Below, piece after piece: positions 2,355-37,179 of a stretch of 37,179 bases of DNA; position 1 is the stretch's first letter, and each line of letters begins with the position of its first letter. This stretch comes from a virus. A model generated the notes under the pieces. It was not told where the DNA came from, did not search any database, and was given only the letters and a program-made list of their open reading frames with translations. The stretch lies in IMG/VR virus record IMGVR_UViG_3300009100_000009, one strand, 5' to 3'. The position numbers were made by a program, and so were the translations under genes.

Positions 2355-2669
2355 TCAACGGATAGTCGGAACGGGTTGCGGTTCGCGGCAGCCTGGTCCC
2401 TGCGGTTTCGGTTGCACGTTGTACCGCCGGCCGGTCGCCGTGGTGTAGACCTCGCGGGCGGTGCCCCGGTCGTCGCAGATCACCCAGTAGGCAACGGGCA
2501 CGCTCCGATGGATCTCGGCGTCGAAGTCGTGCAGGATGCCGTGCTTGGTGCGGCTGACGAACTCCAGCAGTTCGCGAGCGCCGACGACATGGGTCGGGTA
2601 GCCCTCGCTCCGTGGGTCGACGTCCAGCCAGTTGTGATGGGTGTCGTATGCCTGAACCAGATACTCCAT
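2355..2669 (-). CDS. Hypothetical protein (104 aa), last gene of the leftward operon
   Basis: RBS taggagg 6 nt before the ATG. High GC3 frame. No motif recognised. Confidence 0.6.
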   Translation of the reverse strand: MEYLVQAYDTHHNWLDVDPRSEGYPTHVVGARELLEFVSRTKHGILHDFDAEIHRSVPVAYWVICDDRGTAREVYTTATGRRYNVQPKPQGPGCREPQPVPTIR

Positions 2670-2708
2670 TGTGGACCTCCTAAATGGTTAAGACTGTTAA
2701 GGGAAAGG

Positions 2709-2734
2709 GGGAGGGCGCCCGGGGGCACCCTCCC
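2709..2734 (-). terminator. Imperfect GC-rich hairpin after the DUF2637-like gene
   Basis: gggagggcgcc / ggcaccctccc with one C-A mismatch. On the minus strand it is followed by ccccuuucccuuaa. Confidence 0.4.
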
Positions 2735-2744
2735 GAGTGGACGA

Positions 2745-3200
2745 TCAGACGGCGCGCAGCTTGCGCGCCGGGGACTTGCGGGTGGCTGGCTTGGCTGGCT
2801 TGGCGGTCGCCTGGCGCCGGCTGGCCGAGGTGCCGCGGGCCGAGTGGATCAGCAGCTCGACCGTGCAGATCAGCGCGACCGCGGGAATCAGGTTGACCAG
2901 TACGGCGTCCGTGCTGGCGTAGCCGGAGTGCGCGACGTTGGCGTAGATCGTCGCGACGAAACCGAAGACGCGGCCGAACCGGGCCCAGAAGCGCGCGGCC
3001 TTTGGGACGCCGTTCCGGACGACCAGCGTCAGCGCGCTGATCATGATTACTGCGTCGATGCTGACCGGGTAGAACAGGGCCACGTCGGCAGTGTTGCCGT
3101 GCGCCATGGCTACGGCCACGATGTGCCGGAAGCTGGTGTAGAACACGCCGAGGGTGACGACGACGATGAGGGCGATGCGGAGCTTGGCGGTGGTGGTCAC
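2745..3200 (-). CDS. Integral membrane protein, DUF2637-like
   Basis: Four hydrophobic helices (IALIVVVTLGVFY, FYPVSIDAVIMISALTLVV, VFGFVATIYANV, LIPAVALICTVELLI) plus a basic tail. The layout matches the actinomycete plasmid/phage DUF2637 family from memory. GTG start with RBS gaaaggac. Confidence 0.55.
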   Translation of the reverse strand: MTTTAKLRIALIVVVTLGVFYTSFRHIVAVAMAHGNTADVALFYPVSIDAVIMISALTLVVRNGVPKAARFWARFGRVFGFVATIYANVAHSGYASTDAVLVNLIPAVALICTVELLIHSARGTSASRRQATAKPAKPATRKSPARKLRAV

Positions 3201-3260
3201 GGGATGTCCTTTCTGGACGGTGGTCGCGGAGCGCTGAGCGCTACGACGCGGGGATGTCGG

Positions 3261-3326
3261 TCGGGCTGAGCGCCCGCGGCGGGGACCGGCCGGTAGGCCA
3301 GCCTCACCGTGGGGGTTCAGTACGTG
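3261..3326. repeat. Copy 1 of a ~66-nt direct repeat spanning a gene 3' end plus intergenic region
   Basis: 43 nt identical to 3573..3615 (tcgggctgagcgcccgcggcggggaccggccggtaggccagcc), then a near-identical tail through the stop codon. Confidence 0.9.
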
Positions 3327-3550
3327 TCGCCAAGCTCGAATCGCTCAGTGGTCACCACGCGTGTGACCTTGAATAGCCGGTACTCGACCTGTGGGCCCCA
3401 GCCTTCATCATCGTCCAACAGCATCCTGATCGACTGTTTGACGGCCTCGGTGTCGACCCTGATCTCTTCCCATAGCTGCCAGGCGTTTGTCGACCAGCCG
3501 GGTTGGCGGTACTGCACAGCGATGACTTGGGTGGTGATGGTCTCGCTCAT
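3317..3550 (-). CDS. Hypothetical protein (77 aa)
   Basis: Internal ATG at 3550 preceded by RBS aaaggagag. The upstream part of the long ORF overlaps the repeat and looks non-coding. Confidence 0.6.
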   Translation of the reverse strand: MSETITTQVIAVQYRQPGWSTNAWQLWEEIRVDTEAVKQSIRMLLDDDEGWGPQVEYRLFKVTRVVTTERFELGDTY

Positions 3551-3572
3551 GACTCTCCTTTGTGGACGTTGC

Positions 3573-3641
3573 TCGGGCTGAGCGCCCGCGGCGGGGACCG
3601 GCCGGTAGGCCAGCCCCACCGTGAGGGCTCAGTAGTACGTG
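3573..3641. repeat. Copy 2 of the ~66-nt direct repeat
   Basis: See copy 1. Relative to copy 1 it has 3 substitutions and a 3-nt (gta) insertion. Confidence 0.9.
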
Positions 3642-5295: not shown

Positions 5296-5565
5296 GTGGT
5301 CGAATTGGGCGTCCAGCAGGGAGCACCATTGACCACGCGCCCGCCGTGGTCGCGTCGCATCGCCGACGAGATCACGGACCTCATCACGTCCGGCCGATGG
5401 CGGCCGGGCCGGCAGCTGCCGTCCACGTCCCGCCTCGCCGAGCAGTACGGGGTCTCCGAGGCGACCGCGTACCGCGCCGTGCGCGAGCTGCATCGACGGG
5501 GGCTGGTCGTCGGCGAGCGTGGCCGCGGTGTGTATGTCGCGGACCCGACTCACCCGATCGGGTGA
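5296..5565 (+). CDS. GntR-family winged-HTH transcriptional regulator (DNA-binding domain only)
   Basis: LPSTSRLAEQYGVSEATAYRAVRELHRRGLVVGERGRGVYV is a textbook GntR N-terminal domain. RBS ggaggag then GTG. Confidence 0.85.
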   Translation: MVELGVQQGAPLTTRPPWSRRIADEITDLITSGRWRPGRQLPSTSRLAEQYGVSEATAYRAVRELHRRGLVVGERGRGVYVADPTHPIG

Positions 5566-17227: not shown

Positions 17228-18409
17228 ATGCCGTTTCCGGCCAGCGTCACCACTGTCACGGTGCACATGGCCCTGCTCGACGGGCAGGGCCAGCCTTTCG
17301 CGGGACAGGTCATGTGGGTGATCCCGCAGGTGCTGCGCGACGTCACCGGGAACATCGTGATCACGCCAGGAGCCCACATCGCCGAGCTGGACGCGGACGG
17401 CGAAGCCTCGATCACCCTGCCCGCTACCGACGATCCCGACCTCGCGCCGCAGGGCTGGACGTACGACGTCGTGATCTCCGGAACAGGGATGCGCAGCCAG
17501 GCGATGCGCATACAACTGCCGGTTGCGCTCGGCGCCGGACCGGTCGAATTCAGCGACCTGGCGACCGTCGAAGACCCACCCGACGTCATCGCGTACCTGC
17601 CCATCGTCGGCGGCACGCTGACCGGCCCGCTCGTCCTGTCCGGCGCACCGACACAGGCGCTGCACGCCGCGACGAAGGCCTACGTCGATGCCGGCGCGGG
17701 TGGCATTTCGCCGACCATCCTCGACGCCAAGGGCGACCTTCTGGCCGCCAGTGCAGCGGACGCGCCGGTTCGCGTGGCGGTCGGCAGCAACGGACAGGTG
17801 CTGACCGCCGATTCGACGCAGGTCGCGGGGGTGCGATGGGCGACGCCATCCGCGGGCGACGGTGGTGCGCTCTACCCGCCGGAGGGCTACGGGCTCAAGG
17901 CGATGTCTGCCGATCCGACACACCACCAGGGCTCTGCGGGCATCGGCTCTGACACGATCTGGGCCACACGGCTGTGGATTCCGGCTGGTGTCGCCATCGC
18001 CAATCTCTACGTCGCGGTGCGGGCCGGCGGCACGCACAACGGCGCCACGGCCGGTAACCAGCTCGGCCTGTACGACGACACAGGCGCGCAGGTCGACACC
18101 ACGGCCAGCGACGACACACTGTGGACGGCGGCCGGCTGGCGGGGCGGTGCCCTACAGGGTGGGGCCGTTGCGGCGCAGGGGGCCGGGCGATTCGTCTACG
18201 TCCTGTGGATCACGCGGGGACTCACCGTCAACGTGAGCATCCCCTATCCCAGCAGCGCGGATGACGCCAACGCGGTGTATGCCTCCACCGGGGTGGGTGG
18301 TGGCAACCGGCGCGCCATGTACGCCGCTGGCGCGTCGCTGCCCGCATCGTTCGACCCGACGTCCTATGGCACGTCCACCGGCTTTCTGTCGCTGGTAGGC
18401 GTCAGCTGA
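17228..18409 (+). CDS. Tail fibre / receptor-binding-like protein, located away from the tail module
   Basis: GGTLTGPLVLSGAPTQALHAATKAYVD and KGDLLAASAADAPVRVAVGSNGQVLTADSTQVAGVRW are motifs I associate with actinophage tail fibres and minor tail proteins. Confidence 0.6.
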   Translation: MPFPASVTTVTVHMALLDGQGQPFAGQVMWVIPQVLRDVTGNIVITPGAHIAELDADGEASITLPATDDPDLAPQGWTYDVVISGTGMRSQAMRIQLPVALGAGPVEFSDLATVEDPPDVIAYLPIVGGTLTGPLVLSGAPTQALHAATKAYVDAGAGGISPTILDAKGDLLAASAADAPVRVAVGSNGQVLTADSTQVAGVRWATPSAGDGGALYPPEGYGLKAMSADPTHHQGSAGIGSDTIWATRLWIPAGVAIANLYVAVRAGGTHNGATAGNQLGLYDDTGAQVDTTASDDTLWTAAGWRGGALQGGAVAAQGAGRFVYVLWITRGLTVNVSIPYPSSADDANAVYASTGVGGGNRRAMYAAGASLPASFDPTSYGTSTGFLSLVGVS

Positions 18410-18853: not shown

Positions 18854-19063
18854 ATGGACTCAGCGGACATCGCGCACCGGTTCGAGTTTCACCCGGCCAC
18901 CACGGACGAGAAGCGCGAAGCGCATGAGAACGTTCGCCAGAACTGCGGGTGGTTGGCCAGCTACCTGAACGAAGTCCTCCCCGATGGGCGCGAGAAGTCC
19001 CTCGCGATTACCCACCTGGAGGAAGTCATGTTCTGGGGCAATGCTGCCCTGGCTCGGGCCTGA
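18854..19063 (+). CDS. Small helical protein, Acb2-like (Phage_gp49_66 family) candidate
   Basis: RFEFHPATTDEKREAHENVRQ...PDGREKSLAITHLEEVMFWGNAALARA. The motif assignment is from memory only. Confidence 0.4.
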   Translation: MDSADIAHRFEFHPATTDEKREAHENVRQNCGWLASYLNEVLPDGREKSLAITHLEEVMFWGNAALARA

Positions 19064-21286: not shown

Positions 21287-22690
21287 GTGCCACTGTCCGA
21301 GGACGCGGCTGTTGAGCGGGCGCAGGAGATGATGGAGCGGCACCGTTCCGAGCGTGCCGAGCTGGACGTGTTGCGCCGGTACTGGACTGGGCGGCAACGG
21401 TTTCCCGCGGTCATTCCGAATGACGCGCCGGCCGAGGTGCGTGAGATGGCCCGGGTCGCCCGGGTCAACATCTGTGACATCGTGGTCAACTCGCTGACAC
21501 AGGCGCTGTTCGTCGATGGCTTCCGGGCGCGCGATGAGGAATCTGGTGACGACGTCACGGTGCCTGTCTGGTCGGCCTGGCAGGCCAACCGCATGAACAA
21601 GCATCAGGCCGGCTTGCACCGGGCCACCATCGCCTACGGCACTGGGTACACGGTGGTCACCCCCGGCGACCCGGTGCCGGTGATCCGGGCTGTGTCACCG
21701 CGGATGCTCACCGCGGTCTACGGCGCCGATCCCGACTGGCCACGCTTTGCCCTTGAGAAGCGCCCGACCGCTGGGGACTGGCGCCTGTACGACGACTCCG
21801 CGGTGTACACGCTGCGGATGGAGCGCGACCGATTTGCAGTTGCCGCGATCGATGAGCATGGCTTGCCATACACTCCCGTGGTTCGCTACCAGGACGCGCA
21901 GGATCTCGACCTGGACGATGACGCCATAACCGAGGCGCCCGGCCGCGTGGGTGGCGCCGCGACCACCACCATCGTGTGTGGACAGATAGCGCCGCTGATG
22001 ACGTTGCAGGACCAGATCAACCTGACGTCGTTCTCACTCAAAGCCGCGGAGTGGTACTCGGCGTTCCGGCAGCGCTGGATCGTAGGCTGGACCCCGGCGA
22101 GCGACGAGATCAAGATGAAGGCTGCCGCGTCACAGATGTGGACCTTCGACGAGGTGCCCGATGACGTCCAGCTCGGCGAGTTCGCACAGACCGTGCTCGA
22201 CGGGTACCTGCGCTCCCGCGAGGCCTCAGTCAAGTATGCGGCCACCCTGAGCCAGACGCCCGTACACGAGCTCGTCGGCGAGCTGGTCAACCTGTCCGCC
22301 GAGGCGCTGGCCGCGGCCGAGGCCGGCAAGGATCGCAAGGTCGACGAGCGCAAGACCGGTTTCGGCGAGTCGCACGAGCAGACCTTTCAGACCGTGGGCG
22401 CGCTCATGGGCATCGAGGTGCCGGATGACGCCCAGGTGATCTGGCGGGACACGTCGGCTCGCGCGTTCGGTGCCATTGTGGACGGACTCGGCAAGCTGGC
22501 GCAGATGCTCGGCATCCCGCCGCAGGAGCTGTGGGATCGGGTGCCCGGCGCCACTCAGCAGGATGTCCGCCGCTGGCGGGCCGCGGCCGAGTCCGGGGAC
22601 CTGATAGCCGGTCTCAACTCGCTCATGGGGCAGGGCGGGGCGGGTGACGGCGGCTCAGGCGCGGGCGCTGACGCTGGCGCACAGGCGTAA
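21287..22690 (+). CDS. Portal protein
   Basis: 467 aa directly after TerL (TAG then GTG). Size, position and an acidic/Gly-rich C-terminal tail are typical. Confidence 0.8.
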   Translation: MPLSEDAAVERAQEMMERHRSERAELDVLRRYWTGRQRFPAVIPNDAPAEVREMARVARVNICDIVVNSLTQALFVDGFRARDEESGDDVTVPVWSAWQANRMNKHQAGLHRATIAYGTGYTVVTPGDPVPVIRAVSPRMLTAVYGADPDWPRFALEKRPTAGDWRLYDDSAVYTLRMERDRFAVAAIDEHGLPYTPVVRYQDAQDLDLDDDAITEAPGRVGGAATTTIVCGQIAPLMTLQDQINLTSFSLKAAEWYSAFRQRWIVGWTPASDEIKMKAAASQMWTFDEVPDDVQLGEFAQTVLDGYLRSREASVKYAATLSQTPVHELVGELVNLSAEALAAAEAGKDRKVDERKTGFGESHEQTFQTVGALMGIEVPDDAQVIWRDTSARAFGAIVDGLGKLAQMLGIPPQELWDRVPGATQQDVRRWRAAAESGDLIAGLNSLMGQGGAGDGGSGAGADAGAQA

Positions 22691-23099
22691 CCTCGCCGCG
22701 CTCACGTCCGTCGTCGGTCGCCAGGTGCGCTCGATCACCGTAGGCGCTGACCTGGCCGCGATCGAGGACTGGTGGCTGGCCGGCGCCGGCCGCAGGGCCG
22801 AGCAGGCTGTCACGGCCGGGCATCGCGCCGCGGTGACGCTGGCCGTACGGTACCTGCGCGCGCACGCGGACGCGTCCGGCGCCACGGTGGACCCGTTGCC
22901 GGCGCGTCTGGATGTCGAGAGGATGCGCGGCTCGCTGTTCGTGAGCTCGGTCGGAGCGTTCCTGGACAATCTGCGGGTCTCGCAGTCCCAGCCGGCCGCG
23001 GCGCGGGTGATGACGTCGCGGCTGGTCGCCTCGGCGCATCGGCTCGTGCTGGCCGGAGAGCGGGACACGGTGACCGGCACGTTCCTGGCGGGGCGGTAG
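22644..23099 (+). CDS. MuF-like head morphogenesis protein, N-terminal segment (ends at an in-frame TAG)
   Basis: Portal-adjacent position. Same reading frame as 23100..23948. The MuF Cys/His signature starts only a few residues beyond the TAG. Confidence 0.55.
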   Translation: MTAAQARALTLAHRRNLAALTSVVGRQVRSITVGADLAAIEDWWLAGAGRRAEQAVTAGHRAAVTLAVRYLRAHADASGATVDPLPARLDVERMRGSLFVSSVGAFLDNLRVSQSQPAAARVMTSRLVASAHRLVLAGERDTVTGTFLAGR

Positions 23100-23948
23100 A
23101 TGCCCGTCGCAGGGTTCCGGCGGGTGACGAGCGGCTCGCCCTGCGCGTTCTGTTCGATGCTGGCCAGCCGGGGCGCCGTCTACTCGCGTCGCGGCGCTGA
23201 CTTCCAAGCGCACGACGGATGCTCGTGCTCACCGGAACCGGTATGGGAGCACGAACAGGAGCCACCCGAGGTCGTCGAGTTGCAGCGTCAGTGGCGCGAG
23301 GTGACCGCCGGCAAGTCCGGCAAGGACGCGCTTCGCGCCTGGCGTCGGCACGTCGAGTCGGGCGGGCTCGCTCGGCCACCGACCGCCGTTCCGCTTACCC
23401 CTGCGACCGGCGTTGATGCGCTGGCGGCCGCGCCACGGAGCCTGATGCGCCCCGAGTCGTTGTCATCGGAGGAGTTCAGTTTCCTGCGACAGTACAAGGG
23501 GACGGCGTTTGTCAATATCAATGAGGCATTGCGACGCGTGCGTGGCGACCTGCCACGCACGTTCGGATTTGAGTTCCATCGCGAACTTACCGGCGAGATC
23601 GACAAGGTGATGCGTCGCTCGCGTCTCACGTCCGACGTGCGGGTGAAGCGCGGCATCAAGGATGGCCGGAAGGTCTTCGGCGCACGCTGGGATGGGTCGC
23701 TGGTCGGCGCCGAGTGGACAGAGCACAGCTACCTGTCTACTTCGGCGGATGGTCAGATAGCCGAGACGTTCGGGGGCCCGGATGGCGCTGTGCTGGACAT
23801 CCTGCTACCCCGGGGCACCGGGGCGATCGAGCTGTCCGACTCCCGGTACGAGGCTGAACTGTTGGCTCAGCGCGGGTTACGGTTACGGGTAGTGGCGGAC
23901 ACAGGCCCCGGTCCGGGCCGAGTGATAGAAGTGGAGGCCATCCGGTGA
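23100..23948 (+). CDS. MuF C-terminal motif fused to an ADP-ribosyltransferase (R-S-E type) domain
   Basis: SPCAFCSMLASRGAVYS...FQAHDGCSCSPEP (MuF). FLRQYKGTAFVNINEALRR, VRVKRG, SYLSTS and RYEAELLAQRG (ART Arg, STS and ExE motifs). Confidence 0.75.
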   Translation: MPVAGFRRVTSGSPCAFCSMLASRGAVYSRRGADFQAHDGCSCSPEPVWEHEQEPPEVVELQRQWREVTAGKSGKDALRAWRRHVESGGLARPPTAVPLTPATGVDALAAAPRSLMRPESLSSEEFSFLRQYKGTAFVNINEALRRVRGDLPRTFGFEFHRELTGEIDKVMRRSRLTSDVRVKRGIKDGRKVFGARWDGSLVGAEWTEHSYLSTSADGQIAETFGGPDGAVLDILLPRGTGAIELSDSRYEAELLAQRGLRLRVVADTGPGPGRVIEVEAIR

Positions 23949-24079
23949 CACAGGCGGACCGCGGGCGCGCACGCGATCGCATGACGATGGATTACCCGAT
24001 AGAGCTCGATCGGGAACCGGAAGAGTCCACACTGGACGATGAAGAGGACTCCGGCGAGAACGAGTCGGAGGAACAGTAA
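23945..24079 (+). CDS. Tiny very acidic ORF (44 aa)
   Basis: GTGA overlap with the ART gene stop. ...IELDREPEESTLDDEEDSGENESEEQ. Below the ORF-track cutoff. Confidence 0.3.
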   Translation: MTQADRGRARDRMTMDYPIELDREPEESTLDDEEDSGENESEEQ

Positions 24080-24116: not shown

Positions 24117-24755
24117 ATGGCAGAGGACACCACCGGTACCGACAACAAAGGCACCGGGACCACCGCGACGTTCAGCCAGGCCGACGTGGATCGCATCGTG
24201 CGGGAGCGACTGGCACGCGAGCGGGAGAAGTTCAGCGACTACGACGATCTCAAGGCGAGAGCTGCCGAGGGCGACAAGAACAAAACGGCACTTGAGAGGG
24301 TGCTGGAGAAGGTATCCGGCCTGGAGGAGCGGGCCACGAAGGCCGAGCGCGCCGCTCTGCGCTCCGAGGTGGCGACCGCAAAGAAGCTGCCGGCCTGGAT
24401 GGCGAAGCGCCTGACCGGCGATACGCGGGAAGCACTGGAGTCGGACGCGGACGAAATGCTCGCTGCGCTCAAGGCCGAGGCCGGCGCGAGCAAGGGCACC
24501 GAGGGTGACGGCGACAAGGCCGGGGAGGGTAAGGGCACCGAAGACGACAAGGGCGCCGGGGGTACCGGAGGCAAGGGCACCGGGGAAGATAAGGGCACCG
24601 AAGGCGACAAGGGCAAGGGCGCCGGGGACGGGCGCAAGTCGTTGCCGCCGTCCGGGCGCCCCACGGAGCGGCTCACCAGCGGTGCCGCGCCGAGCACGAC
24701 GGGGGACAAAACCCCGGCACAGATGGCTGAGGAGATCCTCAAGTCCGGTTTCTGA
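24117..24755 (+). CDS. Scaffolding protein
   Basis: RBS ggagagga then ATG 24117. FSQADVDRIVRERLAREREKFSDYDDLK is the classic actinophage scaffold N-terminus. KGTEGD-type low-complexity repeats. Immediately upstream of the capsid gene. Confidence 0.8.
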   Translation: MAEDTTGTDNKGTGTTATFSQADVDRIVRERLAREREKFSDYDDLKARAAEGDKNKTALERVLEKVSGLEERATKAERAALRSEVATAKKLPAWMAKRLTGDTREALESDADEMLAALKAEAGASKGTEGDGDKAGEGKGTEDDKGAGGTGGKGTGEDKGTEGDKGKGAGDGRKSLPPSGRPTERLTSGAAPSTTGDKTPAQMAEEILKSGF

Positions 24756-24806: not shown

Positions 24807-25688
24807 ATGGCTGTTCTTACCGCGCAAGGCATTTCGGCGCTTGCGATCGAACTGCTCACGCGTACGCTCGTGCTGCCGATGACCGTGTCCCGTATCTCGG
24901 GCGCGGAGTTCGCCGGCAGCAACGGCGACACGATCACTGTCCGGGTGCCGCAGCCGTCTTCTGCGCGCGTGCAGGCGACGCCCGGCGCGACCATCACCTA
25001 CGACGACGTTGACGAGGTGCCGGTGAACGTCACGATGACGCACCTGTACCACGCGAAGCTCGTCTCTGACGAAGAGCTGTCGATGTCCCTTGAGGACTTC
25101 GGCCGGCAGATCACCCGGGTCCAGGTCGCCGCGGTCGCAACCGAGGCGGAAGACCTGCTCGGCACCGCCATGAACGACCTCGACGCGGACGGCACCATCG
25201 ACGCGGACGGCGGCAACATCGAGGCCATCATCCTGGAGGCGCGTGAGACGCTGGGACGTAACGACGTTCCGGCCGACAACCGGTTTTTGGCCGTGTCGCC
25301 GGAGGTCGCCACGTTCGTTCTCGGGCTGCCCAACCTGTCTGACGTGGATAAGGCCGGCAACGCGTCCGCGCTGCGCGACGCCGTTATCGGTCGGTACCGC
25401 GGTTTCACCGTGGTCGAGTCCAACGGCCTGACCGCCGGCCGGGCAGTGGCGTACCACCGTTCCGGGTTCGCGTTCGCCAACCGCGTTCCGGTGGTGCCCC
25501 GTGGCGTGGTCAGCTCGGCGACCGCCGAGGCCGGCGGCATCAGTCTGCGGCAGATCTTCCAATACGTACCGGACAAGTTGTCGGACGCTACGGTCGTGAG
25601 TACGTTCAGTGGCGCCGCCGCGGTGCCGGACGACGATTCCGGCCTGACGTTCCCGCGCATCTTCGTGATGGACACGGCGGCAAGCTAA
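24807..25688 (+). CDS. Major capsid protein
   Basis: 293 aa after the scaffold gene, RBS aagggag. Typical size and position. Confidence 0.8.
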   Translation: MAVLTAQGISALAIELLTRTLVLPMTVSRISGAEFAGSNGDTITVRVPQPSSARVQATPGATITYDDVDEVPVNVTMTHLYHAKLVSDEELSMSLEDFGRQITRVQVAAVATEAEDLLGTAMNDLDADGTIDADGGNIEAIILEARETLGRNDVPADNRFLAVSPEVATFVLGLPNLSDVDKAGNASALRDAVIGRYRGFTVVESNGLTAGRAVAYHRSGFAFANRVPVVPRGVVSSATAEAGGISLRQIFQYVPDKLSDATVVSTFSGAAAVPDDDSGLTFPRIFVMDTAAS

Positions 25689-26451: not shown

Positions 26452-26600
26452 TCACAATCGTCGTCTCCGCGACGGTGGTTACGGATGATCCCGGGCATGC
26501 CGCCCGCGCCGCTGAGGTACTGGCCAGGGCTGCTGCCGGCCTGGTGCTGGAGGGAATCACGGTAAGCGTGTCGATGGCCGTACCGGATGAGGACACGTGA
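26448..26600 (+). CDS. Small hypothetical protein (50 aa)
   Basis: GTGA overlaps at both ends. High GC3. Below the ORF-track cutoff. Confidence 0.35.
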   Translation: MITIVVSATVVTDDPGHAARAAEVLARAAAGLVLEGITVSVSMAVPDEDT

Positions 26601-27526
26601 TCAGGGCGGTCGTACTGGGTGCGCCCGACCTGGGCGGTCCGGCGATGGAGTGCTGGCACGATGACGTGGTCGACGGCGCGCGGGCGCTCGGATGGAGCGT
26701 CGAGTACCTACGGGTGCGTGGCGCACCGGTCGATGACATCGTGCGCGCCAGCAAGGGCGCCGATCTGCTGCTCTGGTTGCGAACGGTGTCCCACAACCCG
26801 CGGGGCGACGGGCACGCGATGCTGCGGCGCATCGTGGATGCCGGCACGGCCACCGTGGGCATCCACATGGATCTCTACTGGGGGATCCGGATGCGCGAGC
26901 AGCGCATCGGCGCCGAGGCGTGGTGGTCCGCTCAACACGTGTACACCGCCGACGGCGGGCCGCGGGACTGGGCCGGTCGGGGAGTCAACCACAGATGGTG
27001 TCCACCCGCCTTCGGCACCCGGTACCTGGGCCACGGCCGGCGTGATCCGACGGTCACCGCGCGAGCGGCATTCGTGGGCTCGTACGCGCCGCGGCTGCAC
27101 GGCTCGCACCGGGCGCACCTGATCGCGTGGGGCCGGCGCCAATGGCCGGGCGCCTTCCTGCACGTCGGCGACAGCCGGCGCACCCGGCTGTATCACCGCA
27201 AGCTCAACGATCTGTTCGCGTCGATCGATGTCGTGCTGGGGGATTCAGCGCCGGCCGAGCGCTACTGGTCCGACCGGGTGCCGCGCACGCTCGGACGTGG
27301 CGGGTTGCTCGCCTACCCACGCACGGATGGTCTGGCCGAGCAGGGCTTCACCGATGACGCGATGCTGCTCTACGACCGGGGTCGGTTCGATCAGATTGCT
27401 GAGCGGCTGCACGCGTTATCCCCGGTTGGCCGGCGGATGATGACCGCCAACGCCATCCAGGTCGTTCGCGAGCGGCACACCTGGCCGGTACGGCTGGCTA
27501 CGATCGCATCCGAGGTGCTGCCATGA
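26597..27526 (+). CDS. Glycosyltransferase, CgeB / Glyco_trans_1_2-like
   Basis: C-terminal DVVLGDS...SDRVPRTLGRGGLLAY...LYDRGRFDQIAERL...VVRERHTWPVRL matches the GT-B C-terminal half of the CgeB-like family. Confidence 0.65.
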   Translation: MIRAVVLGAPDLGGPAMECWHDDVVDGARALGWSVEYLRVRGAPVDDIVRASKGADLLLWLRTVSHNPRGDGHAMLRRIVDAGTATVGIHMDLYWGIRMREQRIGAEAWWSAQHVYTADGGPRDWAGRGVNHRWCPPAFGTRYLGHGRRDPTVTARAAFVGSYAPRLHGSHRAHLIAWGRRQWPGAFLHVGDSRRTRLYHRKLNDLFASIDVVLGDSAPAERYWSDRVPRTLGRGGLLAYPRTDGLAEQGFTDDAMLLYDRGRFDQIAERLHALSPVGRRMMTANAIQVVRERHTWPVRLATIASEVLP

Positions 27527-28788
27527 CGTGGACGATCCTCATACCGACGCTCGGGCAGCGCAACCAGATGCTCTCCCGTCTGCTGACCACGTTGCTACCG
27601 CAGGTCGAGCTGTACCGCGGCGCGGTGCGAGTGCTGGCGTACTACAACAATGGCTCTCCGTCGCTGGCCCACATCCGCCAGACGCTGGTCGAGGCGGTCC
27701 GCACCCCGTATATGTCCTTTGTGGACGATGATGACATGGTGCCCGATTACTTCGTCGACGAGACGATGGCCGCGCTGGCCAGCGAGCCGGACTACGTTGG
27801 CTGGCAGACCCAGTATTACGCCGATGGCGTCAGGCGCGAGCCGCTGATCGACCAGAGCCTGCGGCACGAGCGCTGGTATGAGGACCGCCGGACCGGCGCT
27901 CTGTACCGCGACATCACACACATCAATCCCATGCGTACGTCCATTGCGCGCCTGGCGGACTTTCGGCGGGTGCGACCGGGCCGGGCCGAGGATCGGGCGT
28001 GGGTCGCGCAGCTACGCGGCAAGCTGCGTACCGAGGTCTACATAGACAAGATCATGTATCACTACTTCTGGACGTCCGCGGGTACCTCGTGGCAGCGTCC
28101 GGAACGCATTCAGCCCGGTCCGAGGCTGGAGGTCGATCACCCGCATTTCACCTACTACGGAGAGGACCGCGAGGTGCCTGGTATCGACTTGCCCGCGTCG
28201 CTCGATGCCCTCGCGGCCAATCTGCACGTACAGAGCGGCATGCTCAAGCTGCACTCGGACCTCGCGCGGTACGCGGCCATCATCGAGGCCACCAAGCCTG
28301 AGGTGATCGTCGAGACGGGAACGCTGACCGGCGCGTCGGCGTTGTGGTTCGCCAGCCACGGACTCGACGTCATCACGGTGGACGTTGACCCACAAATGCC
28401 CGACTGGGCCCAGCACGACCGGATCACCTATGTGGTTGGCGACTCGGCGGATCCGGCGGTCGCCCGCTACGTCCGCGAGCTGGTCGCCGGTCGGCGCTGC
28501 ATGGTCTCGCTCGACTCGGATCACAGCGCGGCGCACGTCACCCGGGAGATCGAGCTGTACGGGCCGCTGGTCTCGCCCGGGTGCTACCTGGTGGTCGAGG
28601 ACGGCATCCTGGGCCACGCACCACCCTCGCTGCTGGCGCAGCACGGGCTCCGCGGGATGGTCGGCTCGCCGCTGGACGCCATCGCGGCGCGGCTGGCCGG
28701 CGCCACGGGCTGGACGCGCGACCTGGACATCGAGCAGGCCAACCCGGTCACGCACCACGTTGCCGGGTGGTGGCGCCGTGACGGATGA
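27523..28788 (+). CDS. Bifunctional GT-A (family 2-like) glycosyltransferase / CmcI-type SAM methyltransferase
   Basis: N-terminus WTILIPTLGQRNQ...SFVDDDDMVP (DxD). C-terminus PEVIVETGTLTGASALWFA...VITVDVD...VSLDSDHS...LVVEDG (CmcI/rhamnosyl O-methyltransferase-like). Confidence 0.7.
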   Translation: MTWTILIPTLGQRNQMLSRLLTTLLPQVELYRGAVRVLAYYNNGSPSLAHIRQTLVEAVRTPYMSFVDDDDMVPDYFVDETMAALASEPDYVGWQTQYYADGVRREPLIDQSLRHERWYEDRRTGALYRDITHINPMRTSIARLADFRRVRPGRAEDRAWVAQLRGKLRTEVYIDKIMYHYFWTSAGTSWQRPERIQPGPRLEVDHPHFTYYGEDREVPGIDLPASLDALAANLHVQSGMLKLHSDLARYAAIIEATKPEVIVETGTLTGASALWFASHGLDVITVDVDPQMPDWAQHDRITYVVGDSADPAVARYVRELVAGRRCMVSLDSDHSAAHVTREIELYGPLVSPGCYLVVEDGILGHAPPSLLAQHGLRGMVGSPLDAIAARLAGATGWTRDLDIEQANPVTHHVAGWWRRDG

Positions 28789-29482
28789 GCTCGTCGTTAT
28801 CACGCCGTCCCGCGGGCGCCCGCGCCAGCTCGTCGAGATGATCCAGGCAGTGACCGAGACCACGTACGGGCACGTGCGGGTGCTGCCCTGCCTCGACGAC
28901 GACGATCCCGAGCTGGCCGAGTACCGGCGAATCCTGCCGCTGTCGCCACGGCTGGTCGGTCCGCGCAAGACGCTGGTCGGCTGGACCAACCACGCCGCGC
29001 GGGTGTTGCTCGACCAGCGCGACCCGCCGCGGTACCTGGCGTCGCTGGGCGACGATCATCGGCCACGTACGGCGCACTGGGACCAGATATTGATCAGTTC
29101 GCTCGATGGTCGGCCGGGCATCGCGTACGGGGACGACCTGTACCAGCACGAGCGGGTGCCCACGGCGTGGGTCGTGTCGGCCGAGATCGTGCGGGCGGTC
29201 GGCTGGATGATGCTGCCCACCTGCGAACACCTGTACGTGGACAACGCCGTGCGCGACCTGGGCTTGACGGCCGGGTGCCTGGTGTACCGGCCGGACGTGG
29301 TGATCGAGCACATGCACCCGGTGGCCGGCAAGGGCGAGTGGGACGCCAGCTACCGCGACAGCAACGGGTCGCGCTTGAAAGCTCGCGACCGTGACGCGTA
29401 CCGACGGTGGGTCCGGAGTGGGTTGGACAGCGACGCGGCCAAGATCCGCGCGTTACGAGAGGGAGCAGGCCAGCGTGTCTGA
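28778..29482 (+). CDS. GT-A-fold glycosyltransferase
   Basis: GTG 28778. LVVITPSRGRPRQL...LDDDD...LGDDHRPRT resembles the nucleotide-sugar binding core of GT2-like enzymes. Confidence 0.55.
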   Translation: MTDELVVITPSRGRPRQLVEMIQAVTETTYGHVRVLPCLDDDDPELAEYRRILPLSPRLVGPRKTLVGWTNHAARVLLDQRDPPRYLASLGDDHRPRTAHWDQILISSLDGRPGIAYGDDLYQHERVPTAWVVSAEIVRAVGWMMLPTCEHLYVDNAVRDLGLTAGCLVYRPDVVIEHMHPVAGKGEWDASYRDSNGSRLKARDRDAYRRWVRSGLDSDAAKIRALREGAGQRV

Positions 29483-29786
29483 GATCATGATCGCGGTACG
29501 GCAGGGGCACATCCGTATCGACGGGCGCCGGTACATCGTCCGGCGCGGCGTTACCACGGCGCACCGGGATCACCCGGTCGTGCGCGACCACCCGAATCTC
29601 TGGGAGCCGATCAAGATCGACTACCCGATGCCGGATGGTGCCGGCTCTGTGGGCGCCCCGTCCGGTGAGCCGGACAACGCCGTGGTCCGCGCGTGGGCCA
29701 CGGGGGCGGGTATTCCGGTCGCGCCCTACGGCAAGGTGCCCTCTGCTGTGATCGAGGCCTACCGTGCCGCCCACGCAGCCCCCTGA
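29475..29786 (+). CDS. Protein with an Lsr2-type C-terminal DNA-binding domain
   Basis: NAVVRAWATGAGIPVAPYGKVPSAVIEAYRAAH aligns by eye with the Lsr2 C-terminal domain ([29 protein letters not shown], from memory). Start is GTG 29475 or ATG 29487. Confidence 0.6.
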   Translation: MSEIMIAVRQGHIRIDGRRYIVRRGVTTAHRDHPVVRDHPNLWEPIKIDYPMPDGAGSVGAPSGEPDNAVVRAWATGAGIPVAPYGKVPSAVIEAYRAAHAAP

Positions 29787-36865: not shown

Positions 36866-37179
36866 ATGTCGCTGGCCATTCTCCCGGGGATGCTGCTCAC
36901 GCCGACCAGGCTCAACCGGCTCGTACCCATCACGGTGGCCAAGTCGGGCGACACGTCGCGGACGAGCACGATCGCGCGGACCGCGGACCCTGACCTCGTG
37001 CTGGCGCTACTGCCGTTCTACACGTACGACGTTGACGGGATGCTATTCGTCACCAGCGCCGCGAATGCGGCCGGGGACTTCTCGTACGAGTTGCAGTATC
37101 CGGCTAACGCCACGTGCACCCCGGGCGGACTCGGGCTGCACAACGCGCTGCCGTCGGGCTCCAGCGCGGACCTCGAAGC
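36866..37179 (+). CDS. Minor tail protein, N-terminal part (continues at nt 124 of the window after circular closure)
   Basis: RBS gggaagg then ATG 36866. The ORF runs off the window end in the same frame as 2..340. Confidence 0.6.
   Translation, partial: MSLAILPGMLLTPTRLNRLVPITVAKSGDTSRTSTIARTADPDLVLALLPFYTYDVDGMLFVTSAANAAGDFSYELQYPANATCTPGGLGLHNALPSGSSADLE
37057..37179. repeat. Second copy of the 123-nt terminal overlap
   Basis: Identical to nt 1-123. Confidence 0.9.

Follow-up and report, generated by a model that had tools for sequence, protein, structure and literature searches.

MuF head proteins fused to polymorphic toxins have been described, and 14% of these toxins are ADP-ribosyltransferases (ARTs; PMC5576092). 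Fusions of MuF to Alt/VIP2-type ARTs have been encountered repeatedly (PMC9503650), and MuF-like+VIP2 fusions are present in both lytic and temperate Microbacterium phages (PMC7302621). In phage SPP1, the portal recruits a few copies of gp7 into the interior of the procapsid (PMC6316719), and delivery upon infection has been proposed for toxins that are fused to gp7-like proteins (PMC6316719; PMC5576092). Here, we analyzed a related locus at positions 22644-23948 of the IMG/VR virus record IMGVR_UViG_3300009100_000009, a stretch of 37,179 nucleotides that we refer to as the window. An original prediction had described one gene of this locus (23100-23948) as a MuF-anchored ART that is packaged in the virion and injected, citing MuF-toxin fusions and packaged ARTs as precedents. 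Those precedents are real (PMC5576092; PMC9503650; PMC7302621), and the idea of a MuF-like/VIP2-like ART fusion is not itself new: such fusions have been reported, and their annotation in actinophages is routine. What is new, and the unusual part of this locus, is a stable split of the head protein into two adjacent genes.

The fusions of actinophages, also annotated as 'capsid maturation protease and VIP2-like ADP-ribosyltransferase toxin' (Microbacterium phage Percival gp4 and Arthrobacter cluster AZ; PMC7302621), resemble the locus of the window: they combine a VG15-type head protein with a PF03496 domain and are located after the portal gene. Many of these fusion genes were matched by tblastn, with an identity to isolated phages of about 30%. 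However, they encode a single chain with a complete head-protein domain, whereas the window presents two cistrons and its ART is carried by the last ~87 residues of the domain only. The MuF polymorphic toxins, which include the EFV toxin of E. faecalis (PMC5576092), likewise present a head-module protein with a variable C-terminal toxin followed by an open reading frame (ORF) of small size. In contrast to the window, they are defined on PF04233, which was unmatched here, they carry the toxin and the whole MuF domain on one chain, and they are reported only from temperate phages and prophages, whereas the genome of the window is complete and no integrase was found among the ORFs tested. SPP1 shares with the window the gene order portal, gp7-like protein, scaffold and capsid with no prohead protease in between, and a C-terminal H/D..C.C motif is found in both gp7 and the VG15 part, but gp7 is one polypeptide with no effector domain. 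The C3, VIP2, C2-I, iota, CDTa, Certhrax and ExoS/ExoT toxins have in common with the ART of the window its predicted fold and its R-STS-ExE residues; these toxins are secreted by bacteria as exotoxins and act on the actin, Rho, vinculin or Ras of eukaryotes, whereas the window encodes a protein of a phage head module that presumably has a bacterial target. Finally, the logic that we propose for this locus is that of T4 Alt, an ART that is carried in the head, injected with the DNA and modifies RNA polymerase (PMC9503650). In the head module of the window, no protease gene was found. T4 Alt, by contrast, is packaged through a capsid-targeting sequence and is processed by the prohead protease, and no MuF-like handle takes part in T4.

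The second cistron of the locus (23100-23948, + strand) starts with ATG, stops with TGA and encodes a protein of 282 amino acids (aa). Using hmmscan, we identified two Pfam domains in this protein, separated by a linker: VG15 (PF25310; aa 4-67; E = 3.7e-16; 60.4 bits for a gathering score of 26) and ADPrib_exo_Tox (PF03496; aa 119-264; E = 4.3e-9; 36.4 bits for a gathering score of 23.4). The first match covers positions 143-211 of the 212 positions of the VG15 profile: the 282-aa ORF holds just the last third of this domain and the rest is encoded at 22644-23099. The same protein matched 'head maturation protease' and 'head morphogenesis' families in PHROGs, together with a weak match to an ART toxin family. 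When 1.84 billion representative proteins were searched exhaustively with HMMER, 2933 relatives were recovered at E ≤ 1e-3, of which 44 reached E ≤ 1e-30, and three of the homologues (P0002, P0004 and P0074) matched PF03496 with 33-63 bits. The AlphaFold2 model, which was built from an alignment of 48 sequences, presented a mean predicted local distance difference test score (pLDDT) of 91.5. The feature is real and far from chance.

The ART domain spans aa 119-282 (23454-23945, + strand). The sequence elements quoted in the original prediction were all found at the places given there, and its assignment of the domain to the R-S-E ARTs of C3/VIP2 type was borne out by the score against PF03496, by the invariance of the catalytic residues and by the structural matches to ART toxins. 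The element that it named as the NAD-site helix (FLRQYKGTAFVNINEALRR) lies at aa 128-146, and four residues of this YxGxxYxxINxxLR helix (Y132, G134, N141 and R145) are invariant across ten aligned ART-bearing homologues. In the same alignment, invariance was also observed for the catalytic arginine R184 of VRVKRG (23649-23651), for S213 of the S213-T214-S215 motif (23736-23744; SYLSTS at aa 210-215) and for all three residues of the E251-A252-E253 motif (23850-23858; ExE within RYEAELLAQRG at aa 249-259), which lies in the substrate-recognition loop. When the protein was compared to PDB sequences with phmmer, VRVKRG, YLSTS and YEAELL aligned with the R, STS and ExE of Pseudomonas ExoT (6gnn_C), R184 being placed opposite the arginine of 'vktfRG'. 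A Foldseek search of the 282-aa model against PDB returned 143 matches at E ≤ 1e-3, and all 50 of those listed were ART toxins. The best matches were Certhrax, C3larvin, C2-I, C3bot1, Plx2a, BECa, VIP2, CDTa and iota Ia (E = 7e-11 to 2e-8), with a sequence identity of 14-23% and a template modelling (TM) score of up to 0.71 on the smaller targets. Judging from its motifs and its predicted structure, this domain is a mono-ADP-ribosyltransferase of the C3/VIP2/Alt R-S-E type with intact catalytic residues, which would confer enzymatic activity. In this clade of ARTs, an ExE motif, as opposed to QxE, goes with arginine acceptors. The ExE motif therefore makes arginine the most likely acceptor, and the substrate is probably an arginine of a host protein.

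The head-protein part of the 282-aa protein is a small module (aa 1-87; 23100-23360, + strand), which matches positions 143-211 of the VG15 profile. According to the secondary structure of the AlphaFold2 model, it is composed of a beta-strand, a CxxC motif (C15 and C18) followed by H38-x2-C41-x-C43, and two helices. The two segments that the original prediction had named as parts of a MuF motif are located here (SPCAFCSMLASRGAVYS at aa 13-29 and FQAHDGCSCSPEP at aa 35-47). The residues C15, C18, H38, C41 and C43 are nearly invariant among the 48 sequences and form a probable zinc site. The module is connected to the ART by a Pro/Ala-rich linker (aa 88-118; 23361-23453, + strand), where the pLDDT decreases down to 60 at residues 91-100 and whose length differs between homologues; the equivalent segment in the model of a continuous Frankia homologue (P0002) has a pLDDT below 50. 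We also observed that the linker and the ART (23364-23945) present a third-position GC-content of 0.72-0.79, compared to 0.89-0.93 across the first cistron (0.91 overall). This drop is consistent with a cargo of different and more recent origin than the head-protein part.

We then considered how this head protein relates to MuF. The original prediction had anchored the ART to a MuF domain and had proposed PF04233 and PF03496 as profiles for verification. The second profile did match, and the Cys/His motif of a MuF-like head protein is indeed joined to the ART; however, only the C-terminal module is present on this chain, the domain being split over two cistrons, and the family that matched was PF25310. 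PF04233 (Phage_Mu_F) yielded no match at E ≤ 1 to the proteins of the window or to the continuous homologues, whereas SPP1 gp7 matches this profile with E = 6.8e-33. An hhalign comparison of the VG15 alignment with SPP1 gp7 gave a probability of 1% and aligned only the H/D..C.C motif. Membership in PF04233 was rejected based on these two results: the head-protein part is a member of PF25310 and not a demonstrated member of PF04233. Several observations come from the annotation and the predicted fold of related proteins. Footloose gp4, annotated as 'MuF-like minor capsid protein', is a VG15 member. The best match of the P0002 model in BFVD was the 'ADP-ribosyltransferase domain and MuF-like fusion protein' of phage Percival (E = 1.5e-18), and further matches were to 'MuF-like minor capsid' (TM score of 0.64-0.76 on the target), 'minor capsid' and 'head morphogenesis' proteins; an Alt-like 'RNA polymerase ADP-ribosylase' was a weaker structural match (rank 50; E = 6e-6). 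A fold search of the full-length continuous homologue against PDB returned matches to ARTs only and no solved MuF-like structure.

The remaining two thirds of the domain are encoded by the first cistron (22644-23099, + strand), which starts with GTG, ends with ...TGTFLAGR-TAG and encodes a protein of 151 aa for which a four-helix bundle is predicted. This product can be aligned with the N-terminal parts of continuous VG15 homologues, being 43% identical to Streptomyces P0009 and P0011, and alone it did not match any Pfam family. It also has stand-alone orthologues (P0189 with 96% and P0190 with 55% identity). The two cistrons meet in frame and with zero gap at a TAG|ATG junction (23097-23102, + strand): the TAG occupies 23097-23099 and is directly followed by the ATG-CCC of the second cistron (MPVAGFRRV...). 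This junction was identical in seven assemblies and in four more loci, representing at least three samples. Because all assemblies compared agree at this position, a sequencing or assembly error at the TAG was ruled out. We also ruled out a suppressor tRNA or a reassignment of the stop codon, since no tRNA genes were found in the window and TAG closes 7 of the 30 genes of its genome. Inter-cistron gaps of 0, -1 or -4 nt are usual in this operon, and the terminase and portal genes may be joined by a TAG|GTG junction as well. The structure of the continuous Frankia homologue (P0002; mean pLDDT of 87.5) was predicted as four long helices (residues 5-150), a beta/alpha module with CxxC...HxxCxC (residues 154-241), a disordered linker and the ART. 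In this model, a loop connects the helix bundle to the Cys module; the split site maps to this loop, and the fission is therefore at a domain boundary.

A G-rich 10-mer (GGCGGGGCGG) was observed just before the GTG of the first cistron (22630-22643) and again before the TAG-ATG junction (23087-23096). In addition, the last codons of gene 1 in the relatives always encode Ala-Gly-Arg (GCG GGN CGN). The 10-mer and these codons may in addition help ribosomes to bind for the translation of the second gene.

The same split was found in other lineages. A gene boundary is present at the same aligned site in five further lineages (L001, L046, L050, L056 and L057/58), and their junctions differ from that of the window. 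In L001, whose ART protein is 46% identical, the two genes remain in the same frame (...LAAGR-TGA-gcc-GTG). In the others, they lie in different frames, either through a TGATG overlap (L046 and L050, ...FRAGR; L057/58, ...FAAGR) or through the junction ...MAAGR-TAG-cc-GTG (L056). Counting the window, the junction is thus out of frame in four of the six split lineages, where readthrough cannot join the halves. Three further cluster representatives, available as proteins only (P0115, P0176 and P0179), start at the same residue (MPIVGWRRV...) and present other C-terminal regions. A word-indexed protein search with the split N-termini retrieved short proteins only. Less similar VG15 genes are continuous, and continuous VG15+ART homologues of 457-470 aa exist, for instance in Frankia sp. 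AgPm24. A metagenome pattern scan returned seven loci, none of which was split. Relative to a variant that is 96-98% identical, the ratio of non-synonymous to synonymous substitution rates (dN/dS) was 0.05 for the ART region (8 synonymous and 1 non-synonymous substitutions), 0.24 for gene 1 and 0.08 for portal and capsid. The recurrence of the split site, the mostly out-of-frame junctions and the low dN/dS together indicate a stable two-gene arrangement. From these sequence comparisons, we conclude that the locus most plausibly consists of two translationally coupled cistrons that are translated into separate polypeptides, and not of a pseudogene, an error or a readthrough fusion.

The second gene of these lineages carries different cargos. 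An ART is present in L001, as in the window, and the second gene of L050 encodes 114 aa and no effector. In L046, it encodes a polyvalent protein of 1114 aa with the VG15 C-terminal module, HeH/Rho_N motifs, an ART and a HEFGHH motif. In L057/58, it encodes a weak PI3/PI4-kinase-like domain, and the same type of domain is found in L056. The cargo types identified so far are therefore an ART, a PI3/4-kinase-like domain, HeH/Rho_N DNA-binding proteins, the 1114-aa polyvalent protein with ART and metallopeptidase, or none. Two of these deserve further description. The 1114-aa cistron of L046 (747-4091) encodes a Gly/Pro/Ala-rich repeat of ~60 aa, the VG15 C-module, SAP/HeH/Rho_N motifs and long helical regions; the ExE position of its ART apparently reads SDE (as judged by eye, unaligned), and the HEFGHH metallopeptidase motif is C-terminal. 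The kinase-like domain of ~250 aa was found on the same Cys-module handle in L056 (2501-3532), L057 (about 2501-3601), P0089, P0139 and P0146. Its likeness to PI3/PI4-kinase catalytic motifs is weak and below threshold (E = 6e-5 to 1e-3), and it is a possible packaged effector.

The genomic context of the locus is that of a head operon. The first 123 nt of the window are identical to its last 123 nt (1-123 and 37057-37179), which indicates that the assembly is circular and complete, with a length of about 37,056 bp; the sizes of independent assemblies are 37,176-37,197 bp. The genes are ordered as small terminase (PF25673), large terminase, SPP1-type portal (21287-22690; PF05133), the 22644-23948 locus, scaffold (about 24117-24755), major capsid (24807-25688), connectors, tail, tape measure and minor tail, and the remainder of the genome encodes lysis and replication genes. 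This places the ART gene between the portal and the scaffold and capsid genes, a position that supports the original prediction, and the same order of head genes was observed in L046, L050 and Footloose. No prohead protease was found between portal and capsid.

The original prediction had further framed such fusions as a feature of temperate phages, and this framing does not appear to fit the window: the genome is complete, and searches against Pfam and PHROGs did not reveal any integrase or repressor among the larger ORFs and some of the small ORFs tested. The early region contains a leftward gene for a DUF2637 membrane protein (2745-3200, - strand) and a GntR-type winged-helix regulator (5296-5565, + strand), neither of which is recognizable as an integrase or a CI-type repressor. 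The same phage, or variants that are 96-99% identical, was found in several JGI, ENA and Logan assemblies and on an 8-kb contig binned in a metagenome-assembled genome (MAG) of Micromonosporaceae. A scan of 185,579 species genomes with one strict peptide pattern returned only this MAG contig. A blastn search against 50,697 phage records revealed no close relative, with matches of ~100 nt in Curtobacterium phages only. The window appears to be the genome of a soil siphophage with an actinobacterial host, and the binned contig gives no more than a hint at a host among the Micromonosporaceae.

A small ORF follows the effector gene. This very acidic ORF of 44 aa (23945-24079, + strand) starts with a GTG that overlaps the stop codon of the ART (GTGA), with a good ribosome-binding site (GGAGG) 7 nt upstream. 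The gene calls of the JGI, ENA and Logan assemblies include it, whereas it was left uncalled in the NCBI MAG, and it did not match any Pfam or PHROG family. L001 and L046 likewise have a small ORF behind their effector gene (46 aa and 76 aa, respectively), whereas none is found in L050, which lacks an effector; the three sequences show no visible similarity to one another. This ORF is a candidate inhibitor or immunity partner of the ART, or else a candidate scaffold accessory. The pattern would echo the argument made for immunity genes of MuF toxins (PMC5576092), based here on three cases versus one.

We propose, with moderate confidence, that the 282-aa protein is a cargo packaged in the phage head that is injected with the DNA and ADP-ribosylates a host protein. 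By analogy with SPP1 gp7, which the portal recruits in few copies into the procapsid, this protein would be internal to the head. Gene 1 would provide the N-terminal four-helix bundle, and gene 2 the Cys/His module, the flexible linker and the ART. The Cys module would place the ART inside the head, either alone or docked onto the bundle encoded by gene 1, and the linker would allow the ART freedom of movement. At the start of infection, the ART would exit the head with the DNA and use host NAD+ to modify a host protein.

Several points weigh against this proposal. The ART chain carries only about one third of the VG15 domain, which puts in question whether this third is sufficient for targeting to the capsid. 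The packaging and ejection of either product and the association of the two halves are suggested by analogy only, and injection is still a hypothesis even for the canonical MuF toxins (PMC5576092). The sequence link between VG15 and MuF is not significant, and the term 'MuF-like' is based on synteny, the H..C.C motif, the predicted fold and the annotations of others. The activity, the acceptor residue and the target of the ART are read from its motifs only. Finally, few substitutions underlie our estimate of purifying selection (8 synonymous and 1 non-synonymous in the ART).

The main rival to packaging is that the ART is made late and remains unpackaged: it would act in the producing cell, for example on host or phage proteins while assembly proceeds or by switching off a defence, or it would be set free by lysis to serve as an interbacterial toxin. 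Most of the head-protein domain is absent from the ART chain, and a tightly coupled small acidic ORF follows, as expected if the producing cell needs protection. T4 also encodes unpackaged ARTs, ModA and ModB, which counts in the same direction. However, the head protein is encoded next to the portal, and its most conserved module is covalently joined to the ART; in the clade, this module forms the conserved N-terminus of many different effector domains, which makes best sense as a common delivery handle. The gene also lies in the late head operon between portal and scaffold, and a late intracellular function would not need a handle. We therefore consider an unpackaged ART unlikely, although it is the alternative that survives best.

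Returning to the proposal of a packaged effector, the nature of its substrate can also be questioned. The domain could have the fold of an ART without having a protein target, acting as an NAD+ glycohydrolase or modifying a nucleic acid or a small molecule, as ART-fold enzymes of this kind are known (Tne5, PMC13285283; an mRNA ART, PMC11618068; a tRNA ART, PMC13617354). We give this only a small chance: the nearest relatives in sequence and predicted structure are ARTs of protein arginine or asparagine (Certhrax, C2-I, iota, CDTa, VIP2, C3 and ExoS/T), and the full R/STS/ExE set of these protein ARTs is present in the window.

A third alternative concerns the in-frame stop codon. Programmed readthrough of the TAG could produce a low level of a 434-aa MuF-like-ART fusion, which would be the packaged species, the stop tuning its copy number. 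The two ORFs of the window share the same frame with nothing between TAG and ATG, the junction of L001 is in frame too, and continuous homologues exist. Against this, the out-of-frame junctions (TGATG or TAG-cc-GTG) in most of the split lineages are incompatible with readthrough, the stop codon itself varies among lineages (TAG or TGA) while a start codon is always present at the junction, and the window has no tRNA genes and ends 7 of its 30 genes with TAG. Readthrough thus appears less probable still than a non-protein target. Finally, the idea that a nonsense mutation broke a MuF-ART fusion and left a decaying remnant, with the 282-aa ORF as an artefact of gene calling, is prompted by an in-frame stop within a domain that is continuous in most homologues, but it deserves almost no credit, because the stop is identical in all compared assemblies from at least three samples, the boundary recurs in five more lineages that each have their own start codon, the catalytic residues are all intact, dN/dS is low in the ART as in gene 1, and no further stops or frameshifts are found even in the 46%-identical P0003; a pseudogene was rejected on this conservation and dN/dS.

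Other genes of the window were noted in passing. A 69-aa ORF just upstream of the small terminase (18854-19063, + strand) encodes the Acb2/Tad1 hairpin domain (PF24729; E = 5e-20), and the same gene is also present on MAG contig L048. Its product is a candidate sponge for cyclic-nucleotide defence signals (anti-CBASS or anti-Thoeris), based on its domain match. Two genes that lie within the structural operon, between the head-completion and tail genes (26597-28788, + strand), encode a Glyco_trans_1_2 protein and a protein with GT2 and rhamnosyl O-methyltransferase/CmcI domains (E = 4e-31); their products may glycosylate virion proteins. Inside the structural block, a gene at 29391-29786 (+ strand) encodes an Lsr2 DNA-binding domain (E = 3e-10), and an Lsr2-domain gene lies in a comparable position of L050 (6352-6735). 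A 393-aa ORF at 17228-18409 (+ strand), whose N-terminus matches tail-fibre PHROGs (E about 1e-12), lies well apart from the other tail genes, with the replication genes on one side and the terminase on the other.

A further example of a head-packaged ART would add little on its own, as the strategy is known, though mostly untested. The split, in turn, is a natural sign that, of the MuF-like protein, only the small Cys/His module has to be covalently linked to the effector. This module of ~90 residues, or its complex with the helical half, is suggested as a capsid-targeting handle, which would constitute a compact tag for testing, and possibly engineering, the delivery of proteins through phage heads. 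A complete genome in which no integrase was found also weakens the view that such toxins are restricted to temperate phages, and it favors a role in host takeover or anti-defence over warfare between lysogens and competitors. More tentatively, and as a possibility that we hold with less confidence than packaging itself, a clade of uncultured soil actinophages, whose one complete genome analyzed here gave no sign of a temperate lifestyle, may have turned the MuF-like head protein into a two-part delivery system: a constant gene for a helical adaptor, and a second gene with a fixed start (MP[IV]xG[WF]RRV...) in which the ~90-residue Cys/His module would serve as a self-sufficient capsid-targeting handle for interchangeable cargo. 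In our literature searches, we did not find a conserved fission of a MuF-like domain with polymorphic cargo on its small C-terminal module. If true, this scenario would delimit the smallest packaging signal that effectors of the MuF type need, and it would provide a natural cassette by which enzymes could be swapped and loaded into phage heads.

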